Source of the DNA: Promethearchaeota archaeon
GTDB taxonomy: Archaea; Asgardarchaeota; Lokiarchaeia; Sigyniarchaeales; SOKP01
DNA length: 64,000 nucleotides
Assembly (NCBI GenBank): GCA_048938005.1
Contig: JBHLMQ010000003.1
Span: forward strand, 32,001-96,000
Reading direction: 5' to 3'
This document shows, piece after piece, positions 1,833-26,227 of the stretch. Numbering within the stretch: position 1 is the first letter of the stretch; each line of letters starts with the position of its first letter. The translations under genes and the position numbers were made by a program. The notes below the pieces were generated by a model. It had not been told where the DNA came from. It searched no databases and was given only the letters and a program-made list of their open reading frames with translations.

Positions 1833-4800
1833 ATGCTTTATATGAAAATCTTTAAAAGTAGATCCATCATCACAATTTTCATTATATTTTGCTTTAGTCT
1901 ACCTGTTTACAACAACTTTTATAATATTTCTGATAATGCTAATCCAACACAAGAATCATATACTATTATTCCTCAAGCTATTAACCGAACAGGAAAAAAC
2001 TTTTTGAATATAACAATAAATAATAAAGATTGCTATGTCAATCGTGAATTCCCTGGTTTAAACAATCAACCTAAATTAAACATCCTAGGCTATAATATCT
2101 CATATGCTAGAATGAATTTTGAGAATATTACAGCGATAAATTATACTAGAAATATTGAAGAGGATTTCTCAGAATTTATTTTAAGTTCTGTTAATGGTCC
2201 TACATATGTTTATCAAAAATTTGCTATAGAAATAAACCAATATGTTAATAATGTGAGTATTCTTATCCAAGATATTAATGATCCTACGAATTTTACAGAT
2301 GAAAATTCATGGGAAGTTGCCATTGTCAATTGTTTGAATGATACATATGGAACACCTAATCCCAATGAAAATGAAATATTAGGTTCGTTACAAAAACCTC
2401 ATCCTACAGTTTTTGCAGCTCATTGGGAAATTTTCGATTTTAAAAATTCTGAAACAGGATCATTATATTTAGACATAACAAAAACAAATATGACATATGA
2501 AAATGGGATGGAAAAATATTGGTTTGCAATTAGAATAAAAATTCCTAAAGATGATACTAGATTTGGTGGTGGGCCAAAATTCCTCTACTTTAACCCTGAT
2601 GGCGGATCCCCTGAATATATTGGAGAAGGAGAGACATTTGCTAAATCACCAGACTTTATTGTTAATAATTCCACACTTAATAACGTAAAAGATTCTATAG
2701 TTCAAAATGGAACATTATTAAGTGGCAATCTTAATTCATTTAAAGATATTGATGAAGATAGATATCTTGTAACTGATACTGAGAATGTAACCTTAGACAT
2801 TAAGTTTGAGTTAGAAGAATTAAAACATTCTCGTTTTACTTTTTGGCAATTATATCTGTGGGCTCTTAAAAATCCACTTGATTGGTTTCTTAATCACTAT
2901 AAATATCTTTTTAGCATTGATATCTCTCTCGTAGCAAATGTGTCTGACATCCTGCTTTTAAAATCTGCAAATTTATCTATCCGTAACTATAAAACAGGTG
3001 ATCCATGGTATAATACAGGTCTCGATTTAAGACAAACGAATGAGTCTTTAATATATTATTCTGTGAGAGACCCTGAGACTAAATTCGGGCTCCTTCATCT
3101 AATGGGTAATGCTCCTATGCCTTTAACTAATAATACTCTTGAGTTTAAATTTGAATATCTTGGTACTGGTGGAGGCGATTTTAATATATCTATTAATCAG
3201 TTTAAAGTTGAGATCGGTGAATTAGAAAATCTTAAAACAATTCAACAGTATGATCCTTTAATACAAGATTTATATACTCCAAATGATTTAAGCATTCTTA
3301 ATGGAACTACTTTGCCATTTGGTAATCAGTCAATTGAATCATTAGAACAAACTGATTATGAAACTTTTAAAGCTCAAGCATTAACCAGTAATATTTCATT
3401 AGAATTTCATTTAAATGTACTTAATGATATTGATAGTTCTTTATGGAATATTGATTATTATGATTGGATTGCTTCTTATCCAAATCCAATAATTCCCATC
3501 TCAGAAATAAGAATCACTTCAAATGTTAGTAGACCTGAAAACCTTACTCAAGCAGTCTTAGAACTTTATAAGGGAAATAAAACATTTGATCTTCTTGATA
3601 AGGAGCAAAATAAAGCAACTTGGCTTCAGATAAGTGATATTAGACAATTTGCTAATAAGAGCGAAGTTACAACAGTACTCCCTTACGAAGCAGGATTTAC
3701 TTGGATTTTTTTGCAATTATTAAACGAATCTGAAAATAACCTAGTAAAATTACGATTAAGATATAATTCTAGTAGTATCTTTGATTATGGATTTAATGTC
3801 TCCATCAATGAATTCAGCGCAAATTTCTATATACAAAATGCAATTTCTTCAGATATATCATCAAAAATAGGATTAGGTATAAATAGTAATATGTTAACTC
3901 CTTCTGATATAAAAATGCAAAATTTTGGAGTTGATATAATTGATACTGGAATTGGTGAGGGTAATTGGACTGCAGAAATAGATGATGCCTTTATTTCTGA
4001 AGGGATTTTTGAATTCAATATATCTTCACAATGGCATTCAATTAGATTCGACGTGAATGGAACTTATGAAATATTTAAAATTATTCCAGAATTAGAATTC
4101 ATTGAAATTCCAGCTCACCAATATATGATTGGAACGAATTCTTTTTCTGTAAGAATAACTAAAGCAGGAGGAATGCCAATAGTAAATGTTAAAATTATCT
4201 TTGAGGTAATAAATCCTAATAATATCAGTATTTATGATACTACTGCCATATCTAATGAAGAAGGAATCGCAACTACTACATTGAATTTTGAAAGCACTGG
4301 TAGAGGATATAACGTAAGAATTAGATTTATTGAAGCGGGGATGTACACTAGCGCTGAATTGATATCACAAGATATCAGAGTGGTAGATGAATTTATTCTG
4401 TTCATGGATAATTTCTTTCGGTTCTTACCATATATTATTATCGGTATTGTTGCTATTGCAGCTTTCGTCACAATACGACAGGTTAGACATACTAGGTTAA
4501 AAAGATTTTGGGCTGGAGAAGCTAAGATTTTGGATGACTTAGTAAAAATCTCATATATCATGATAATACATAAAGATGTGGGAGTTTCAATATATAGTAA
4601 ACAAATATCTTTAGAAGGTATTGATTCAGATCTTATCTCTGGTTTTCTGCAAGCAATATCGCAATTTAGAAGTGAAATTAAAAAAGGATCGATTGATGAA
4701 AAGGGGAAAGGATTTGAAATGGATTATGGCGATTTTAAAATTGTAATTACAGATGGAAATTACGTTAGAGTTGCTTTAATACTAGATGATATTCCCTCCG

Positions 4801-5168
4801 AAAAACTAAAAGAAAACCAATGGTTATTCACAGAAGATTTTGAGAGGAGATATGGTTCGTTATTAACAGATTTTACTGGCGATATCACTCCTTTTAGAGA
4901 AGCAGATAGTCTGGTTGAAAGACATTTCAATGTCTCACTAATCTATCCATTACAATTAGGAAAACATTATGGAGTCATTAAATTAAAGGGCCTTGAAAAG
5001 ACTCTTATAGAAGTTGCTGAGCAAATTCAGAAAGAGCGGAAGTTATTCTTCATATCGAGTCTTCTAAATTTCGCATTAGCAGGCACGAAAGCATCTAGAG
5101 ATGAAATAATAAGTACAATTATTGATTTAAAGACAAAGGGGCTTATAATTCCAGCAGAAATTGAATAA
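1833..5168 (+). CDS. Large single-pass surface protein with cytoplasmic longin-like domain and C-terminal wHTH-like region
   Basis: N-terminal hydrophobic signal, ~850-aa Asn/Ser-rich ectodomain, TM PYIIIGIVAIAAFVTI, then YIMIIHKDVGVSIY..DLISGFLQAISQF..YVRVALIL longin pattern. Confidence 0.75.
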   Translation: MLYMKIFKSRSIITIFIIFCFSLPVYNNFYNISDNANPTQESYTIIPQAINRTGKNFLNITINNKDCYVNREFPGLNNQPKLNILGYNISYARMNFENITAINYTRNIEEDFSEFILSSVNGPTYVYQKFAIEINQYVNNVSILIQDINDPTNFTDENSWEVAIVNCLNDTYGTPNPNENEILGSLQKPHPTVFAAHWEIFDFKNSETGSLYLDITKTNMTYENGMEKYWFAIRIKIPKDDTRFGGGPKFLYFNPDGGSPEYIGEGETFAKSPDFIVNNSTLNNVKDSIVQNGTLLSGNLNSFKDIDEDRYLVTDTENVTLDIKFELEELKHSRFTFWQLYLWALKNPLDWFLNHYKYLFSIDISLVANVSDILLLKSANLSIRNYKTGDPWYNTGLDLRQTNESLIYYSVRDPETKFGLLHLMGNAPMPLTNNTLEFKFEYLGTGGGDFNISINQFKVEIGELENLKTIQQYDPLIQDLYTPNDLSILNGTTLPFGNQSIESLEQTDYETFKAQALTSNISLEFHLNVLNDIDSSLWNIDYYDWIASYPNPIIPISEIRITSNVSRPENLTQAVLELYKGNKTFDLLDKEQNKATWLQISDIRQFANKSEVTTVLPYEAGFTWIFLQLLNESENNLVKLRLRYNSSSIFDYGFNVSINEFSANFYIQNAISSDISSKIGLGINSNMLTPSDIKMQNFGVDIIDTGIGEGNWTAEIDDAFISEGIFEFNISSQWHSIRFDVNGTYEIFKIIPELEFIEIPAHQYMIGTNSFSVRITKAGGMPIVNVKIIFEVINPNNISIYDTTAISNEEGIATTTLNFESTGRGYNVRIRFIEAGMYTSAELISQDIRVVDEFILFMDNFFRFLPYIIIGIVAIAAFVTIRQVRHTRLKRFWAGEAKILDDLVKISYIMIIHKDVGVSIYSKQISLEGIDSDLISGFLQAISQFRSEIKKGSIDEKGKGFEMDYGDFKIVITDGNYVRVALILDDIPSEKLKENQWLFTEDFERRYGSLLTDFTGDITPFREADSLVERHFNVSLIYPLQLGKHYGVIKLKGLEKTLIEVAEQIQKERKLFFISSLLNFALAGTKASRDEIISTIIDLKTKGLIIPAEIE

Positions 5169-6223: not shown

Positions 6224-6784
6224 TTAAATCGCTGTCCAAAGTATAGATCTTCCTTTTTTTTCAGCACGCTTAATTTTCTTTGAAGTTTCTAAATCTGACA
6301 TAATTTTCCAGATCTGGGAATTACTTAATTTAAAGTATCTTCGCAATTCGGGAGTTGTCATCTTAGTACCACTCAATAAATTCGGGATTAACCTTTTTAT
6401 TTCGTCTACAGTATTCTCGTCAGACTCTTGAGTGCCTTTATCATCCACTTCTCCTTTTTCCATTTCTGTAATTATTCTGGAAGCAACTTTATTTAATGCT
6501 TTAATATTGTTATCTACTACATTTTTAGGCTTCATAAAAAGGCAACAAAGTTCTAAATCTCTTGGAAACGCGACAATATAGAATTTGTCGTATAATATTG
6601 CTCTAGGCTTTTTAACGGATTCATTTCCACCGCGAAAAGCTAAGTAAAAATTCATAGCAAAATCATCTAGACTTATACCTTTCTTTATATTCGAATATTC
6701 CTTTTTCCACTTAAGAAATGGGCCATCAATCATATCAAATCCAATTAAAGCTGCTCCAAACATTTCATTTTCAGTAAAATTCAT
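6224..6784 (-). CDS. uDENN/longin-like N-terminal domain fused to C-terminal winged HTH
   Basis: AALIGFDMIDGPFLKW (F-D-x-x-x-G-P uDENN-like start); MTTPELRRYFKLSNSQIWKIMSDLETSKKI HTH; 4-nt overlap with the GTPase gene. Confidence 0.6.
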   Translation of the reverse strand: MNFTENEMFGAALIGFDMIDGPFLKWKKEYSNIKKGISLDDFAMNFYLAFRGGNESVKKPRAILYDKFYIVAFPRDLELCCLFMKPKNVVDNNIKALNKVASRIITEMEKGEVDDKGTQESDENTVDEIKRLIPNLLSGTKMTTPELRRYFKLSNSQIWKIMSDLETSKKIKRAEKKGRSILWTAI

Positions 6785-7308
6785 TCTTTTCTTCTCCTCC
6801 TAACTGATATTTTATCTAATTCTTTCTTAATAATATTTATAACTCTTAAACGTTCTGAAGGATTTATAGCTGTTAATCCATATGTTTTGACATGAAGTAT
6901 ATCCTCAACCCTTTTATAATCCATTCGACCATCTTTTTTTATTAAATCTTGCTTATTCGCAATAGCTATAATTGGACACTCTTTCCCTACAAAATGACAA
7001 ACATAATTAATTAATTCTCTTGAATTTAGTACATTTTTAGGTGTTGAGTCGGTAATAATGAATACAATATCAGAACCTAAAAGATAATCACTTGAATAAG
7101 TCTTTAGGTATGATTTTTGCCCCCCAAGATCCCATATTCTTAAAAAGTAATCGTCAAACTTAACTGTTTTTAAATCTAAACCATGAGTAGGAAAGTATAA
7201 TCGTTCTATTTCATTTTGAGCTAAGAGTTTTGCTAATGTAGTTTTTCCCGTGGCAGGATATCCAATTAATGTCAACTTTGCCAATTTGTCTATTTCAGAA
7301 CTTAACAT
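6781..7308 (-). CDS. Small Arf/Rab-like GTPase
   Basis: G1 GYPATGKTT, G2 PTHG, G3 WDLGGQ, G4 NKQD, G5 TAI. Confidence 0.92.
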   Translation of the reverse strand: MLSSEIDKLAKLTLIGYPATGKTTLAKLLAQNEIERLYFPTHGLDLKTVKFDDYFLRIWDLGGQKSYLKTYSSDYLLGSDIVFIITDSTPKNVLNSRELINYVCHFVGKECPIIAIANKQDLIKKDGRMDYKRVEDILHVKTYGLTAINPSERLRVINIIKKELDKISVRRRRKE

Positions 7309-7419
7309 TTCATTTCACTAAATTAAGTGATTTCATAAGAAAGTATGAAATGAAATTGAATATCAATTTGGATAATATCTAAGTAATACGAAATAAATGT
7401 GAGATTTAGAGAAATTAAA

Positions 7420-8244: not shown

Positions 8245-10134
8245 TTAAATATTATATAGGAATATTAGCAATATTAATGAAAAAAATGTTGGAGCAATTA
8301 AACTTATTGTTAACAAACTTTGAGAAACTCTAATGCATTCCTTAAGTGTATCGATTATAACATTAAAATATTGCGGATCTCCCCAAACTTTAACGTTTTC
8401 ATAAGAATCCTTATAATAAAATTCAACTGGCTCTAAATCTTCTTCTGCTTTTTCGATTAATGTTTCTAACTTTTCAAGAATAAGATCTGTTTTTATTTTA
8501 TCACCAATTGGTGAATATCCTCTATTTGAAAATTGGCGAGCAACTGTATGTGAATCTGATGTGGTAATTTCTCCTTTTTCTATACCCCGATTTTGTAAAA
8601 AATTTAGGATATTAGACCGAACTTCTACATAGGCATTATTTCCATCAAAGTGAATTAAGACACTTTTCTGATCTGTGTGTTTATTCTTAAACAAATGAAC
8701 AACCATTCCCCCAGCTCCAATCCCTTCATTTTCGGAATATTCTTCTATTTGATCTTTCGCAACTCCATATAACATAGGAACTTTTTGAAGTTTTTTAACA
8801 CTTTCACTCTCCATATATTTTTTAGTAACATCAATTATATCTTTTGCTTCTATTGTATCTTTTTTAATTAAAACCTCATCCCCAATTATAGCATTATGAG
8901 AATCTATGATGATTATTTCTTTATAACCATTAGAAATAGCAATGTTTCTTATATCTTCTCCGACTTCTGATTCAATATCGTCAGAAGGAAGTGGATGTCT
9001 TGTTACAAACACAATTGGGACTTTATCTATTTCTGTACCAATGAGCTTAGCTGAATTAGAAATTTTTCTAGTAAAATCCTTAATTTCTCCTATCCATTTA
9101 ACTTCATTACTATTAATTATTTCAGTGATATCTTGTTTAATTCTCTCAATAATTACCTCAACATAACCTTGGGTCGTTAAATTTTGAGTATGATCATTTG
9201 TTGTATGATAAACTGTAATTCCTGGAATATCACAAAATTCTTTATATATATGTTCTGGTAAATCAGACGACCCACAAGTCTTAAAAGGTCCAAAATGAAC
9301 ATTTGGTATTACTAGTAATCCTTTTATCTTTTTTGTTTTTATACTTCGGATTAGTAAATATTGAATTTTCACATTTGATTCTAGACCAACTGCATCAAAA
9401 TAACTTTCAATGAGATCGTCATTACCATCAGTCATCATTGAAAGAACAAAAGCTCTAATAAACGAATATCCTCGCATTCCAGTTGCTTCTTGATAGATAT
9501 TACTTACTCGAAATAATCCTCTTCTATATGGAATCGCGAACAATAAGGCACATCCAACGAAAAAAACCATAGCTTTAATAAAAAAGAAAATATCAAATTG
9601 TTGACCAGTATATACACTATAAAGAACTATTGCTGTAATGGGTTGAATTAATGATAAAATTAAATTACCACGACGACCTGCAGTTGTAAATGAAAAATAA
9701 ATAACAAAAGCAATGATGTATGAAATTATAACTCCTAAAATAAGAAATATTTCTTGTTGTCTGATATCATTCAAAAGGATAGCCACAATCTGGCCAAAAA
9801 TGATTGTGACTTCAATAATAGCGCTAAAAAATGCATTTATTTGAACTGACCATCCAATTGGAGGTGCTTTTAAGATTGGGGCCTTCTTTGAATAAAATAA
9901 AATTGAAAATAATGTACCACATCCTGAAGTAATTAGGAAAAAAAATGAGAAACGCAAAAAGTGAAATAGATCAAAATATATCCCTGTTAAGAAATAATTT
10001 AATAGTGATGATAGTAAACCAAAAATAATTGGAATCCCAAAAAATATAAAATAGGCTAACTTTTTGGATGAAAATAATTCCATATACGAAATAATACCTG
10101 GTATTTGACGGGTAGGTTTTTTTTTTATAATCAT
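8245..10134 (-). CDS. DUF2070 family membrane protein
   Basis: N-terminal TMs; PNVHFGPF, HTTNDH, IDSHNA, FDGNN, TTSDSH motifs. Confidence 0.85.
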   Translation of the reverse strand: MIIKKKPTRQIPGIISYMELFSSKKLAYFIFFGIPIIFGLLSSLLNYFLTGIYFDLFHFLRFSFFFLITSGCGTLFSILFYSKKAPILKAPPIGWSVQINAFFSAIIEVTIIFGQIVAILLNDIRQQEIFLILGVIISYIIAFVIYFSFTTAGRRGNLILSLIQPITAIVLYSVYTGQQFDIFFFIKAMVFFVGCALLFAIPYRRGLFRVSNIYQEATGMRGYSFIRAFVLSMMTDGNDDLIESYFDAVGLESNVKIQYLLIRSIKTKKIKGLLVIPNVHFGPFKTCGSSDLPEHIYKEFCDIPGITVYHTTNDHTQNLTTQGYVEVIIERIKQDITEIINSNEVKWIGEIKDFTRKISNSAKLIGTEIDKVPIVFVTRHPLPSDDIESEVGEDIRNIAISNGYKEIIIIDSHNAIIGDEVLIKKDTIEAKDIIDVTKKYMESESVKKLQKVPMLYGVAKDQIEEYSENEGIGAGGMVVHLFKNKHTDQKSVLIHFDGNNAYVEVRSNILNFLQNRGIEKGEITTSDSHTVARQFSNRGYSPIGDKIKTDLILEKLETLIEKAEEDLEPVEFYYKDSYENVKVWGDPQYFNVIIDTLKECIRVSQSLLTISLIAPTFFSLILLIFLYNI

Positions 10135-11385: not shown

Positions 11386-12186
11386 TTGAGAATAATGTAT
11401 ATAAATATTGAAAGAAAATTTGATTTAGAAAAAAAGAATCTTAAGAATCCGGTTGTGTTAATTGGATGGCCGGGTATTGCATTAGTAGCAAAATTAGCAA
11501 TTACATCTATAAAAGAATCTATAAATGCAGAAGAATTTATGAGCATTCAATGCTTTGATTTCCCTCCCAAATCAATCGTAGAAAAAGGCTCCTTAGAAAT
11601 ACCAACAGCAAAGTTATATTATAAACCAACAGATAAAGAAGATGGAAATGATTTTTTCATTTTGACGGCAAGTTATCAACCACAGAATCCTGAGGGTGTA
11701 TTTGAATTTTCTAAAATTTTTTGTGAAGAAATGAATAAGATAACTGGGGGGAATATAAAAATGTATGTGAGCACGGGTGCTATGATTTCTGATATTTTAC
11801 ATGATACACCTGTAGTGTATGTCTGTGGAACCGATCAAAATTTAGTTAAAACCTTCTTAGATTTTGAGCATACTAAATTATATGAAGGAGGATATATCTC
11901 TGGAGCAAATGGTATTTTACCAGCATGGGCAGGAGCAAATGGCTATGCTCCAGGAATATGTTTACTCGCAGAAACTCTTCCTTTACCTATGATGACTTTA
12001 GATCCTCGCAGTTCTAAGGCTCTTGTCACTTTATTGAAAGAATATTTCTCAATAGATATGGATTTTAGTAAACTTAATGAAAAAATTAAAGAAATGGAAA
12101 ACATTTTTGAATCATTTAAGAAACAAGCTGATCAATTCATGAAGCCACCACGTGAAGATAAAGGGGTAGATTCGTATTTTCGTTAA
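11386..12186 (+). CDS. PAC2-family proteasome assembly chaperone
   Basis: LIGWPGIALVAKLA, ISGANGIL, CLLAET..DPRSSKAL, C-terminal SYFR; true start may be ATG 11395. Confidence 0.88.
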   Translation: MRIMYINIERKFDLEKKNLKNPVVLIGWPGIALVAKLAITSIKESINAEEFMSIQCFDFPPKSIVEKGSLEIPTAKLYYKPTDKEDGNDFFILTASYQPQNPEGVFEFSKIFCEEMNKITGGNIKMYVSTGAMISDILHDTPVVYVCGTDQNLVKTFLDFEHTKLYEGGYISGANGILPAWAGANGYAPGICLLAETLPLPMMTLDPRSSKALVTLLKEYFSIDMDFSKLNEKIKEMENIFESFKKQADQFMKPPREDKGVDSYFR

Positions 12187-24991: not shown

Positions 24992-26227
24992 ATGAGTGTG
25001 TTATTTATGCAAACAAGATCTAAGATTGGTTTAGTTGTTTTAATTAATTTTCTTCTTCCTTTACATGTTTTGTTATATTTTGGAGCCTTCAATATGTATT
25101 TCGATTACGCTATGAATTTATGCTACTTATCTTTTTTGGTCTTGGGAAGTAAAGATTTAGAGACAGATAAAAGGGAATTCAAACTATTAGCACTTCTGAA
25201 GATTTTCCCTGTTATTCTCTATTTTTATTATATTATAACTCAAGTAGGATATACTTTTATTAATATGATATTAGGGGGTAGTCTAGATTTTTTCTTTTTC
25301 AATTTCATACTAGCTAACGCCCCAAACTTATATTGGGTAATACGAGCCATCTCCTATAGTGTCACATTTCTTTTAATTTTTGGTTTAACATTGTTTGGAT
25401 TCAATAACAGAAAATACTATGGAAATTACGTGATCGCGTTCGCAGTTTTGTATTTAGTAGATAGATTATTTAGTTTAATTAACGCCATTACTTTATCATA
25501 TAACGCTACATTTTATCTCCTCTTTCTTTATGCCACTTTTGTTTTGGTGTCAATTTCTGCTAGTTATTTGATATTTTTTGGACAAAGAATAAGAATTATA
25601 TATTTTACTTTAAGCGGAATTACGTTTTTTGGATCTGTTTTTATTAGATGGATATTCACTTTCATTTTTTTTATCTTGGCCCAAATAGAGATTTATTCTG
25701 TAATAGCACTTATAACTTCTTTAATTGGAGTAGTGGTTGCAAGCCGATTTATAGAATTAGGGACAACGTTCAAGCGAGGGATTCGCGTCTTTATTACTCA
25801 TGCAGTTGATGACTATCGTAGATACAGAATTAATGAAATTGCCCAATTTTTAGAAAACCAAAAAGGAATACGCTATGTATATTATTGTGAAGCTGATTTA
25901 ACAGGAAATATTGATGCTTGGATGCAAAAAACGGTGCCACGCTGTCAATTACTACTTTTCGTTTCGACTGAAAAATCATTGAATTCGGTTGATTGCGCTA
26001 CTGAATTAAGTATTGCTCGAGATAATAGGTTGACAATCATTCCCATATTGGGAGTTGGGCTAAATTGGGATGATTTGAAAAAGCTAGATGTTCATAGAGA
26101 AGTTGGTGCTAGTTTTGATCCCATGGAATTTGAAGATTTTTGTAATAAATTGTACCAACAATTCCAAATATATAAAAAATCACTCAATCAAATATCTGAC
26201 GATAACCAATCCCAGAAAAAGAAGTAG
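24992..26227 (+). CDS. Multi-pass membrane protein with C-terminal TIR domain
   Basis: About 8 TMs, then RVFITHAVDD..YYCEADL..LLFVSTEKSLNSVDCATELSIA..IIPIL. Confidence 0.85.
   Translation: MSVLFMQTRSKIGLVVLINFLLPLHVLLYFGAFNMYFDYAMNLCYLSFLVLGSKDLETDKREFKLLALLKIFPVILYFYYIITQVGYTFINMILGGSLDFFFFNFILANAPNLYWVIRAISYSVTFLLIFGLTLFGFNNRKYYGNYVIAFAVLYLVDRLFSLINAITLSYNATFYLLFLYATFVLVSISASYLIFFGQRIRIIYFTLSGITFFGSVFIRWIFTFIFFILAQIEIYSVIALITSLIGVVVASRFIELGTTFKRGIRVFITHAVDDYRRYRINEIAQFLENQKGIRYVYYCEADLTGNIDAWMQKTVPRCQLLLFVSTEKSLNSVDCATELSIARDNRLTIIPILGVGLNWDDLKKLDVHREVGASFDPMEFEDFCNKLYQQFQIYKKSLNQISDDNQSQKKK

Follow-up and report, generated by a model that had tools for sequence, protein, structure and literature searches.

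A Lokiarchaeia-type archaeon encodes, in two overlapping genes, a small GTPase related to Arf and a protein that joins a longin fold to a winged helix (the partner). Their adjacency is more than chance, since the partner has 493 relatives (E ≤ 0.001) and the gene order is kept at every informative locus examined. We hold it to be about evenly balanced whether the two form a cognate pair, made by coupled translation, in which the partner is a dedicated and GAP-like regulator that binds according to the nucleotide state of the GTPase. On that reading the partner would be a small archaeal version of the GAP longins of eukaryotes. The features discussed below, all from one stretch of 64,000 nucleotides (the window), are collected in Table 1.

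Table 1. Features of the GTPase–partner locus, in window coordinates.
Feature	Position	Strand	Size and basis
Arf-family small GTPase gene	6781..7308	minus	175 aa; ORF list, Pfam
Longin + winged-helix partner gene	6224..6784	minus	186 aa; ORF list
ATGA, overlap of GTPase stop (TGA) and partner start (ATG)	6781..6784	minus	sequence
AGGAGG, candidate ribosome-binding site	6796..6801	minus	sequence; putative role
Longin/roadblock-superfamily domain, partner residues 1–114	6443..6784	minus	structure models
F16-D17-x3-G21-P22 motif, strand 1/strand 2 hairpin	6719..6739	minus	alignment, model
Acidic linker EKGEVDDKGTQESDENTVDE, partner residues 115–122	6419..6442	minus	model; relatives' alignments
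Winged helix, partner residues 123–186	6227..6418	minus	structure model
Conserved promoter-proximal block TTCGTATTACTTAGATATTATCCAAATTGATATT	7359..7392	minus	34 nt; upstream-region comparison

An Arf-related GTPase overlapping its partner gene

The junction between the two genes reads ...AAAGAATGAATTTT. An AGGAGG within the 3'-terminal part of the GTPase gene, 11 nt upstream of the partner ATG, could serve as the ribosome-binding site from which the partner is translated in a coupled manner. An initial annotation had described an intact Arf/Rab-like GTPase overlapping a 186-aa gene at ATGA, and the ORF coordinates, the junction and the Pfam Arf match all agree with it. The sequence with which it had the N-terminal half begin, GFDMIDGPFLKW, is present, but at partner residues 15–26 and not at the N-terminus. 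A PADLOC search returned no defence family with a meaningful score, its best match (E = 0.002) falling on P-loop stretches.

The nucleotide-binding motifs of the GTPase are intact (GxxxxGKT, PT.G, WDLGGQ, NKQD, TA(I)), with G16, P18, G21, K22, T23, P40, T41, G43, D60, G63 and N118–D121 invariant in its alignment and Q64 nearly so. The marks of the Arf family, namely G1–G5, WDxGGQ, NKQD and the Pfam Arf score (61.7 bits, cut-off 22.3), are all present; the Arf model is matched at 7.7e-17, against 1.2e-5 for Gtr1_RagA, and the closest solved relatives are Arl3, Arl2 and Arf1 (2.7e-14 to 1e-9). Canonical Arf proteins carry an N-terminal amphipathic helix, usually myristoylated at Gly2. Judged by its sequence, the GTPase is Arf-related rather than a canonical Arf, because it has no Gly2 and its strand 1 begins near residue 11, behind an N-terminus (MLSSEIDKLAK) that leaves out the long helix. 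The C-terminus is polybasic (RRRRKE). Among the 65 small-GTPase matches in this genome the window GTPase is a distinct orthologue (289.8 bits, next 140). The same genome also encodes a winged HTH + Roadblock fusion that adjoins a Roadblock and an Arf-like ORF.

A longin domain carrying the GP motif

In the models (pLDDT 79.1, pTM 0.67) the N-terminal domain of the partner consists of strands 8–17 and 21–29, a helix at 39–51, strands 62–64, 69–75 and 78–84, and a final helix at 88–111. This order (strand-strand-helix-strand-strand-strand-helix) is of longin type and places the domain in the longin/roadblock superfamily. The 50 fold matches listed are all roadblock or longin domains, bar a few profilins and proteins of unknown function, with Z scores in a middling range of 5.6–8.4. 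LAMTOR, dynein LC7, AP sigma/mu, COPI zeta, TRAPP, MglB and the GATOR1 chain 9o5a_C lie at Z 7.1–8.4, and the GEF longins Mon1–Ccz1, BLOC-3 and DENND1 are also found; the Z values do not tell GAP longins apart from either roadblocks or GEF longins. Searches by sequence gave little at this level. None of 30 family members matched the Pfam longin, NPR2 or folliculin models at E ≤ 10 (after HMMER's filters), the 186-aa protein produced chance-level rows only against Pfam/NCBIfam (URGCP 0.067, SdpR 0.046) and one chance row as a single query against the PDB, and the longin half of the family profile matched nothing in the PDB. A homologue search with the N-domain profile returned the same family. 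Of the original label for this half, 'uDENN/longin', the longin/roadblock fold holds, on the models and the GP motif, and the uDENN family is not supported, on the Pfam result and the Z scores.

In the model G21-P22 of this motif lie at the start of strand 2, and in the GAP longins the GP motif is found either there or in the preceding loop; D17, G21, P22 and P60 are invariant in 30/30 sequences. According to the available text of PMC12290439, a GP motif of this kind marks only the GAP longins C9orf72, SMCR8, FLCN and NPRL2, sits within their catalytic pocket, and is lacking in the DENND, TRAPP and adaptin longins which that text considers. Data S1 of that paper covers 15 Asgard longins, and the partner family may be among them.

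The alignments of the partner were also searched for an invariant arginine as a finger candidate, and none was found. R51, R61 and R75 are replaced in relatives by K, Q, N, M, H, D, E, L or V. R75, which we take to be the likely counterpart of the NPRL2 arginine finger, alternates with K even between close Lokiarchaeia sequences and is not among the listed interface residues of the complex model described below; R51 lies inside the predicted GTPase interface.

The winged helix and the upstream promoter block

The linker is part of a stretch modelled at pLDDT <50 (residues 111–122), and its length differs between relatives. Behind it follow H1 (123–137), H2 (144–151), H3 (155–167) and a wing (171–185), so that an acidic linker leading into an HTH-like C-terminal half, as first read from the letters, is recovered in the model. 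Counted from sequence, the winged helix carries roughly +7 net charge, and its wing is basic (KKIKRAEKKGRS). Its fold is supported by the match to DNA-bound, ArsR-type NolR (Z 10.1, rmsd 1.6 Å, 60 residues aligned), which shares the top place with PH1932 (Z 10.1, rmsd 2.2 Å, 62 residues). Close behind, at Z 8.3–8.8, come the winged helices of NPRL2/3, ESCRT-II, cullins and Rpa2, which bind protein.

By sequence, the winged helices of relatives match Pfam HTH_11 (7.3e-8), HTH_5/ArsR (1.1e-7) and HTH_DeoR (1.3e-7), one relative (P0128) reaching 31.7 bits with HTH_DeoR (cut-off 21) and 27.4 with HTH_11 (cut-off 25), and the GntR model is matched in 7/30 family members. The window's own partner protein had no HTH match in Pfam. 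Against the PDB, the family profile finds only HTH regulators, of the archaeal Lrp/AsnC type, Lrs14 and AdcR, at E of about 0.001. When the whole protein is submitted to Foldseek, the list is led by regulators that combine a sensor with a winged HTH (CodY, E 6.3e-4, then CprK and CRP-type proteins); the CodY match (TM 0.26, rmsd 17 Å) reflects a shared domain plan and not a true superposition.

The promoter block begins 60 nt upstream of the GTPase ATG. Its counterparts in relatives contain TAATA-N6-TATTA, which is palindromic though imperfectly so, and behind it a TATA-like GATTCATAT. Of the 27 upstream regions of family f1, 19 anchor on the block, the remaining eight having variant forms (by eye). 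Its information content is 0.5–2.4 bits at offsets −22 to −1, with flanks mostly below 0.4; offsets 0–8 are the anchor itself and their content is hence circular. A matrix built without the window's copy ranks the block alone at the head of all sites in the genome (36.9 bits, the runner-up having 16.0), and a genome-wide regulon search with the block matrix found the operon's own site and no second one. The block may be an operator or a promoter. Co-variation between the recognition helix and the upstream motif was considered as evidence and rejected, as it follows phylogeny.

Together, the HTH matches of relatives, the basic wing and the palindrome-bearing promoter block make DNA binding by the winged helix plausible. 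They also bear on a second account of the pair, that of the initial annotation, which we regard as possible though somewhat improbable, namely that the partner is a GTPase-gated DNA-binding regulator. The longin domain would sense the GTP/GDP state and the winged helix would bind DNA, probably in a dimer formed through the longin domain and at a palindrome like the one in the operon's own promoter, so that transcription or another DNA transaction is switched. Such a role is compatible with that of a GAP-like partner, and both could hold. Besides the Pfam and PDB matches to DNA-binding regulators, it would fit NolR and PH1932 at the top of the fold list, the net charge of the domain, a palindrome block that sits just upstream of a TATA-like element (19 of the 27 promoters compared) and is unique in the genome, the sensor-plus-winged-HTH proteins heading the Foldseek list, the genome's winged HTH + Roadblock fusion near a Roadblock and an Arf-like ORF, and a recognition helix and wing that the complex model leaves mostly outside the GTPase interface. 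Other points count against it: the window protein is without a Pfam HTH match, protein-binding winged helices score nearly as high as the DNA-binding ones, the block may be a plain promoter with no tie to the partner and no regulon is visible, the co-variation is phylogenetic, and relatives in other Asgard families are without the winged helix or have another C-terminal domain. In addition, an identity of 75–92% (over the 120 listed of 493 relatives) is in our judgement unusually high for a specific transcription factor.

A predicted complex across the nucleotide face

The GTPase and the partner were modelled together with GTP and Mg. Three runs gave ipSAE values of 0.24, 0.77 and 0.83 (median 0.77), compared with 0.00 for the best control; the mark applied is reached by 116/157 solved complexes and 2/215 mismatched pairs, a calibration that is rough here on account of our own alignments and the riding GTP/Mg. 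Modelling of the pair had been named at the outset as a check on the proposed link, and the pair passes its controls. The pass may in part be due to likeness to known complexes, since solved longin–GTPase and roadblock–GTPase complexes exist. The runs share at least 92% of contacts, with a partner pLDDT of at least 75.

The predicted interface takes in GTPase residues 17–19, 23, 36–45, 60, 64–67, 70, 87–95 and 126 and partner residues 16–23, 44, 47–48, 51–56, 77, 124–140, 168 and 170. In the model, residues 19–21 of the partner (the GP loop) contact GTPase residues 64–66 in the switch II/catalytic Gln region, H1 of the winged helix (124–140) is placed on the P-loop and switch I, and the recognition helix and wing stay outside the interface, bar residues 168 and 170. 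Because H1 forms part of the modelled GTPase interface, the winged helix may serve, wholly or in part, to bind protein. K130 in H1 is the sole nearly invariant polar residue of the winged helix, which fits a functional H1 face.

Most longin platforms are GEFs (DENN, Mon1–Ccz1, TRAPP). The partner might then be an exchange factor, or an effector or adaptor of the GTP state (for example as SRX is on SR-beta), with no role in hydrolysis, a reading that we consider unlikely. It agrees with the fold matches to TRAPP, Mon1–Ccz1, BLOC-3 and DENND1, with the failure to find a conserved arginine finger in the alignment, and with a modelled interface that covers the P-loop and both switches, surfaces that GEFs also use; SRX, MglB and the Rags are named as longin/roadblock GTPase platforms in PMC3747258. 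It is opposed by the GP motif, which is specific to the GAP class and absent from DENND, TRAPP and adaptin longins as far as the available text of PMC12290439 goes, and by the model with GTP and Mg, in which the GP loop is put on the catalytic Gln region.

Conservation of the gene pair

The GTPase gene lies directly upstream of the partner gene, on the same strand, in all 38 loci with a two-domain partner (at one of them, L010, the contig ends within the partner, which was nevertheless matched). In a second, partly overlapping set of 80 loci, all from metagenome-assembled genomes and including one with a cut partner (L066), this holds for 78/79; the lone miss (L059) is a contig that starts 51 nt before the partner gene. 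The synteny across Asgard genomes that had been named as a check is thus found. Gaps between the two genes span −20 to +16 nt, with the 4-nt overlap in 47/78 paired loci, and the pair persists in several families even as its flanks differ. By comparison, stand-alone GP longins adjoin the GTPase gene in only 1/12 loci, so that tight GTPase coupling accompanies the extra C-terminal domain.

Relatives in other Asgard families are without the winged helix or carry a different C-terminal domain. The latter (P0143, P0145, L032–L035) had no Pfam match, no rows in a PDB phmmer search and a best Atlas value of 0.76, too low to count as a lead; by eye it looks helix-hairpin-helix-like. No fused form was found at E ≤ 0.001 among proteins of 327–2000 aa, a search that carries little weight. 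The public names listed for relatives are 'hypothetical protein' with two exceptions, an 'Uncharacterized protein' in UniRef and a 'biotin operon repressor'.

That the two genes are unrelated neighbours with an incidental overlap would accord with the observation, in PMC10933270, that small GTPase genes of the cultured Lokiarchaeon MK-D1 generally lie outside roadblock/longin operons, but it is contradicted by an order and strand kept in 38/38 and 78/79 loci, across several families and with changing flanks, and by the complex model (0.77 versus 0.00 for the best control), and is highly improbable.

A proposed GAP-like role for the partner

Under the reading that we favour, a cognate pair with a GAP-like partner, coupled translation would yield the GTPase and the longin–winged-helix protein in matched amounts, and the partner would span the nucleotide face of the GTPase. 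The hairpin bearing D-x3-GP and the end of longin helix 1 would rest on switch II, beside the catalytic Gln64, whereas H1 of the winged helix would cover the P-loop together with switch I and the beginning of GTPase helix 3. Binding would be expected to depend on GTP versus GDP, given that both switches are engaged. By analogy with C9orf72–SMCR8 (an Arf GAP), FLCN, GATOR1 and MglB, the partner would most likely control GTP hydrolysis in a GAP-like manner, probably aiding it by positioning the GTPase's own Gln and not by an invariant arginine finger. The recognition helix and wing, left free, could make a second contact directed at nucleic acid. The kept gene order, the complex model, the invariant motif, the longin fold, the nearly invariant K130 and the rarity of the GTPase beside stand-alone longins speak for this reading. 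The lack of an invariant arginine, the 0/30 Pfam result, the middling Z scores and the single run at 0.24 all count against it. A role purely as a GTPase clamp would leave unexplained why the winged helix is closest in sequence to DNA-binding regulators.

Comparison with known systems

The pair resembles C9orf72–SMCR8 in having a client GTPase of the Arf family, in a GP motif that the model places on the catalytic side of the GTPase, and in the aromatic-D-x3-G-P spacing of the partner, which equals that of W33-D34...G38-P39 in human C9orf72 as given in the available text of PMC12290439. It differs in that there is no DENN/d-DENN domain, for which 186 aa leave no room, no WDR41 and no adjacent second longin gene, and in that the partner has a winged helix, no invariant arginine finger in its alignments and no Pfam match; the fold match to 7o2w_A is at only Z 6.3 (rmsd 3.4 Å, 80 aligned).

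With NPRL2/NPRL3 the partner shares the general plan of an N-terminal longin followed by winged HTH, as these proteins are described in PMC3521125 and PMC3747258, and with NPRL2 the GP motif (PMC12290439, available text). The GATOR1 chain 9o5a_C is matched in fold at Z 7.5 (rmsd 3.1 Å, 75 aligned), and the Foldseek rows include 9v0j_A, 9o5a_C and 9o5d_C/D. Unlike NPRL2/3, for which the same two papers give two or three winged helices, the partner has one, of prokaryotic regulator type by sequence; its GTPase is Arf-like and not Rag, and there is no DEPDC5-like subunit. NPRL2-like longins in Asgard archaea are reported in the available text of bioRxiv 10.1101/2020.10.19.343400, and the partner family may be among its NPRL2-like asCOGs. 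The longin + winged-helix architecture thus already exists in NPRL2/NPRL3, and the initial annotation erred, as far as architecture goes, in treating such an output as unfamiliar from eukaryotic relatives, these proteins combining a longin with tandem winged HTHs. DNA binding is not known for the winged helices of NPRL2/NPRL3.

MglA–MglB, from bacteria and archaea, likewise couples two genes, one for a small GTPase and one for a protein of roadblock/longin fold, MglB matching the partner at Z 7.1–7.8 (16% identity). MglB is a Roadblock GAP that can do without supplying an arginine finger. The differences are a longin-type order with the long helix on the C-terminal side, the GP motif and the added winged helix in the partner, and a GTPase that is Arf-like, has its own Gln and is encoded first. 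With one-component regulators such as CodY and CRP/CprK the partner shares the plan in which a sensor at the N-terminus precedes a winged HTH at the C-terminus; its sensor would be a GTPase-binding longin instead of a small-molecule GAF/cNMP domain.

Significance

Whether GP-motif Asgard longins partner Arf-related or Rag GTPases is a question posed in the available text of PMC12290439, and the pairing of Asgard GTPases with GAPs and GEFs is described as hard, the genes generally not being in operons, in that of PMC10933270. In the pair described here, gene overlap, strictly kept synteny and a model of the complex that clears its controls link a single GP-motif longin to a single Arf-related GTPase. 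The pair of this Lokiarchaeia-type archaeon therefore offers a ready test case for the pre-eukaryotic control of such switches, and its small proteins (175 and 186 aa) put binding, GAP/GEF and DNA assays and a crystal structure within reach.

A further reading, possible though somewhat improbable, is that in Lokiarchaeia the Arf-related GTPase directly gates a DNA-binding winged helix through a longin sensor of C9orf72/NPRL2 type, in which case the module would be a living model of the NPRL2/NPRL3 ancestor and the palindrome of its own promoter the first target. We know of no described counterpart of a module that signals from a small GTPase to DNA. Should the partner prove to be a GAP, the way in which the longins of C9orf72–SMCR8, FLCN and GATOR1 catalyse hydrolysis would predate eukaryotes and would work without DENN domains. 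If DNA binding is also true, a eukaryote-type switch would be linked to the control of genes in those archaea that are most closely related to eukaryotes.

Conservation of the gene pair

The GTPase gene and the gene for its 186-aa partner are a real pair, not chance neighbours. As the initial annotation had noted, the stop of the first and the start of the second share an ATGA. An AGGAGG lies 11 nt ahead of the partner start codon. The GTPase lies immediately upstream and on the same strand in all 38 loci with a two-domain partner, and directly upstream in 78 of 79 loci with a complete partner ORF in a second set (n = 80, all metagenome-assembled Promethearchaeota by their public titles, partly overlapping the first), the sole exception being a locus cut by a contig end. 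Gaps in the second set range from -20 to +16 nt (a 4-nt overlap in 47 loci), and the genes flanking the pair differ from genus to genus. Stand-alone GP longins, i.e. those without an extra C-terminal domain, have an adjacent GTPase at just 1 of 12 loci.

In a profile search of whole genomes across the phylum, full-length partner relatives came from 38 of the 40 genomes in the window's family and from all 3 in a sister family; two more families gave a few, and five others gave N-domain-only relatives of ∼130 aa. The total at E<=0.001 is 76 matching genomes out of 201, often through a weak match to the winged helix only. The search for a longer fused form of the pair found none, which is weak evidence.

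In one subgroup (proteins P0143 and P0145; loci L032:1343-1933(-), L033:3126-3707(+), L034 and L035), another C-terminal domain, of ∼80 aa, replaces the winged helix, and the GTPase is still upstream at 4 of 4 loci; Pfam, PDB and Atlas searches returned nothing for this domain. The gene for the 241-aa membrane protein next upstream was seen adjoining the pair solely within the window's own genus. Two of the stand-alone longins (at locus L036 and protein P0146) finish with a stretch of 8-10 Arg/Lys. At loci of other Asgard families, stand-alone GP longins neighbour either a divergent PF0610-like winged HTH plus zinc-ribbon gene (L036-L038, ∼1e-12; L036 also has a Roadblock gene nearby) or a divergent Fuz_longin_1-like 143-aa gene (L040, L041, L043, L045). 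Source labels of pair-carrying records are probably unreliable: one contig with the archaeal pair (L104, record DATKTW010000082.1) is titled Nanopelagicaceae bacterium, and proteins 80-89% identical to the query are labelled as different Asgard phyla (Hod-, Thor-, Odin- and Hermodarchaeota).

Features of the pair, its proteins and other genes (nucleotide positions are in the window, or in locus L002, G000:C23:14217-17591 of the window's genome, where named)
Feature	Position	Strand	Basis
Partner ORF, 186 aa	6224-6784	-	ORF list
Arf-family small GTPase ORF, 175 aa	6781-7308	-	ORF list, Pfam
Upstream block, 34 nt, TAATA-N6-TATTA-like imperfect palindrome and adjacent TATA-like element	7359-7392	-	
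Multi-pass membrane protein without family, 241 aa	7420-8145	-	
DUF2070 membrane protein, upstream of pair	8245-10134	-	Pfam 1.2e-85
Partner N-domain elements	residues: strands 8-17, 21-29; helix 39-51; strands 62-64, 69-75, 78-84; long helix 88-111		AlphaFold2
Acidic linker, low confidence	partner residues 111-122		AlphaFold2
C-domain, three helices and two-stranded wing	partner residues 123-186		AlphaFold2
Predicted interface, GTPase	P-loop 17-19, 23; switch I 36-45; switch II 60, 64-67, 70; 87-95; 126		complex model
Predicted interface, partner	hairpin 16-23; 44, 47-48, 51-56; 77; winged-helix helix 1 (124-140)		complex model
Signal/anchor-like start, many N-x-S/T sites, late hydrophobic helix, 1111 aa	1833-5168	+	
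PAC2 proteasome-assembly-chaperone-like	11386-12186	+	2.6e-25
Two ubiquitin-like domains, 164 aa	14179-14673	+	Ub-Mut7C 6.9e-8, ThiS 1.3e-11
TIR-domain protein	24992-26227	+	1.1e-7
Subtilase with IFT52 GIFT-like stretch, 1337 aa	26519-30532	+	6e-8
N-terminal HTH-like stretch, coiled region, C-terminal Roadblock/LC7, 262 aa	L002 868-1656	-	FaeA-like 2.6e-4; 1.4e-17
Roadblock protein beside it, 138 aa	L002 2197-2613	+	2.1e-12
ORF with weak Arf match beside it, 247 aa	L002 5-748	+	6.6e-4

The GTPase is Arf-related

In a window of 30% G+C, the 175-aa protein matches Pfam Arf at 7.7e-17 and 61.7 bits, where the cut-off is 22.3, with Roc and Ras models below Arf and Gtr1_RagA at just 1.2e-5; its closest PDB relatives by sequence are Arl3, Arl2, Arf1 and Arl8 (2.7e-14 to ∼1e-9). 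An alignment of 23 orthologues conserves the P-loop (G16, P18, G21, K22, T23), switch I (P40, T41, G43), switch II (D60, G63, and Q64 in at least 90%), NKQD (118-121) and A147. With no Gly2 and only ∼10 residues ahead of strand 1, the protein counts as Arf-related and not as a canonical Arf. Its C-terminus is a polybasic RRRRKE, encoded in part by the AGGAGG element. Among the 65 small-GTPase matches in the window's genome it stands out as a distinct orthologue, at 289.8 bits with the next at 140.

Predicted folds of the partner

No Pfam or NCBIfam family covers the partner. AlphaFold2 models were built for the whole protein (23 relatives, pLDDT 72.7) and for residues 1-118 (30 relatives, pLDDT 79.1, pTM 0.67), and the modelled N-domain has its elements in longin order. 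Its matches among solved structures are essentially all roadblock/longin (Z 5.6-8.4): LAMTOR subunits, dynein LC7, AP sigma/mu, COPI zeta, TRAPP, Mon1-Ccz1, BLOC-3, MglB, C9orf72-SMCR8 and GATOR1, with 5x6v_D (Z 8.4, rmsd 3.1 Å, 74 aligned) and 9o5a_C (Z 7.5, rmsd 3.1 Å, 75 aligned) as examples. Such matches make superfamily membership clear, but at these Z values and a Foldseek E of 3e-3 at best, structure gives no subfamily; of the uDENN/longin assignment first made for this half, the superfamily stands. The C-half, proposed to be HTH-like after an acidic linker, is indeed modelled as a winged helix, scoring Z 8.1-10.1 against solved ones (NolR: Z 10.1, rmsd 1.6 Å, 60 aligned).

In an alignment of 30 sequences that takes in stand-alone longins of other Asgard families, D17, G21, P22 and P60 are the only positions without any change, and G21-P22 begins strand 2. 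A published account (PMC12290439) locates just such a GP motif in the catalytic pocket and gives it as a mark of catalytic longins only, those of C9orf72, SMCR8, FLCN and NPRL2; it lists FNIP2, NPRL3, adaptins, TRAPP and DENND proteins as without it, and 15 Asgard longins with published predicted structures as carrying it. The C9orf72 residues reported there, W33-D34 and G38-P39, have the spacing of F16-D17 and G21-P22 in the partner. C9orf72-SMCR8 acts as a GAP on Arf; the partner is encoded next to an Arf-like GTPase.

A predicted complex and its possible function

Joint models of the two proteins, built from alignments and with GTP and Mg included, scored 0.24, 0.77 and 0.83; the median is 0.77, and the best of three controls reached 0.00. 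Of 157 solved complexes, 116 pass the tool's score mark, and of 215 mismatched pairs, 2 do, counts that apply here only roughly. Runs share at least 92% of contacts, with partner pLDDT at least 75. As a prediction, the model supports binding of the two proteins; resemblance to known complexes may account for some of the score, because solved longin-GTPase and roadblock-GTPase complexes exist. Partner residues 19-21 are placed on GTPase Q64-S66. An unexpected contact is that of the winged helix, whose helix 1 packs on the P-loop, Y38 and 87-95. In helix 1, K130 is the one polar position of the domain that is nearly invariant, which is consistent with this face of the helix being functional.

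We propose that the pair would be a switch and its dedicated partner, produced together and in contact via the nucleotide face, so that binding would depend on nucleotide state. The partner would most likely control GTP hydrolysis in a GAP-like role, to judge by its class of GP motif, by an Arf-type client and by the predicted placement on the catalytic Gln. A classical arginine finger is disfavoured because R51, R61 and R75 all vary among relatives, and for want of a conserved arginine among these an MglB-type mechanism is possible. In that mechanism, the GTPase's own residues are positioned by the partner, as may happen here. The partner may instead be an effector or a GEF.

That the winged helix is a DNA-binding output gated by the GTPase, as the initial annotation suggested, is plausible and compatible with the complex model, though we give it a lower probability than the GAP-like role; the annotation's interpretation as a whole is partly supported. 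Relatives match HTH_11, ArsR, DeoR and GntR models, some above curated cut-offs, the family profile matches archaeal regulators in PDB, and the wing is basic. Helix 3 and the wing lie outside the confident interface except for residues 168 and 170. However, winged helices of NPRL2/3, ESCRT-II and cullins bind proteins, and other Asgard relatives have no winged helix. The palindromic upstream block, 60 nt ahead of the GTPase start codon, speaks for DNA binding: of 27 related promoters, 19 conserve it and the others have variants (one genus group has a variant or inverted form, ATCACCAAGGTATTAC). Against this, nothing links the block to the partner, and a matrix scan found this single site in the window's genome.

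Other genes

Locus L002 offers a second theme of HTH and roadblock with a GTPase. The 1111-aa protein has an Ig-like Big_1 domain (Pfam, 7.4e-5) and a C-terminal tail (4401-5165) without a Pfam match. A 36-residue stretch resembles a 143-aa Fuz_longin_1-like protein (BLASTP 4e-5) whose gene adjoins those of stand-alone GP longins from a different Asgard family. The PAC2, ubiquitin-like, TIR and subtilase genes have a eukaryote-like or defence-like flavour.

Relation to known systems

The initial annotation knew of no such output among eukaryotic DENN proteins; as an architecture, however, longin plus winged HTH is not new in kind, because NPRL2/NPRL3 are described with it (PMC3521125, PMC3747258). 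Asgard Arf-related GTPases and GP-motif Asgard longins (PMC12290439) are already published, as are Asgard NPRL2-like longins, some reported as fused to signalling domains (bioRxiv 10.1101/2020.10.19.343400). Tran et al. describe small GTPase/longin-type operons as generally absent in MK-D1 (PMC10933270). Our literature search found no conserved overlapping operon of a GP longin and an Arf-related GTPase, no single-winged-helix longin form and no predicted GTPase-holding role of a winged helix. The finding is of value mainly as a source of one cognate GTPase/longin pair that is small and tractable and comes from the archaea most closely related to eukaryotes.
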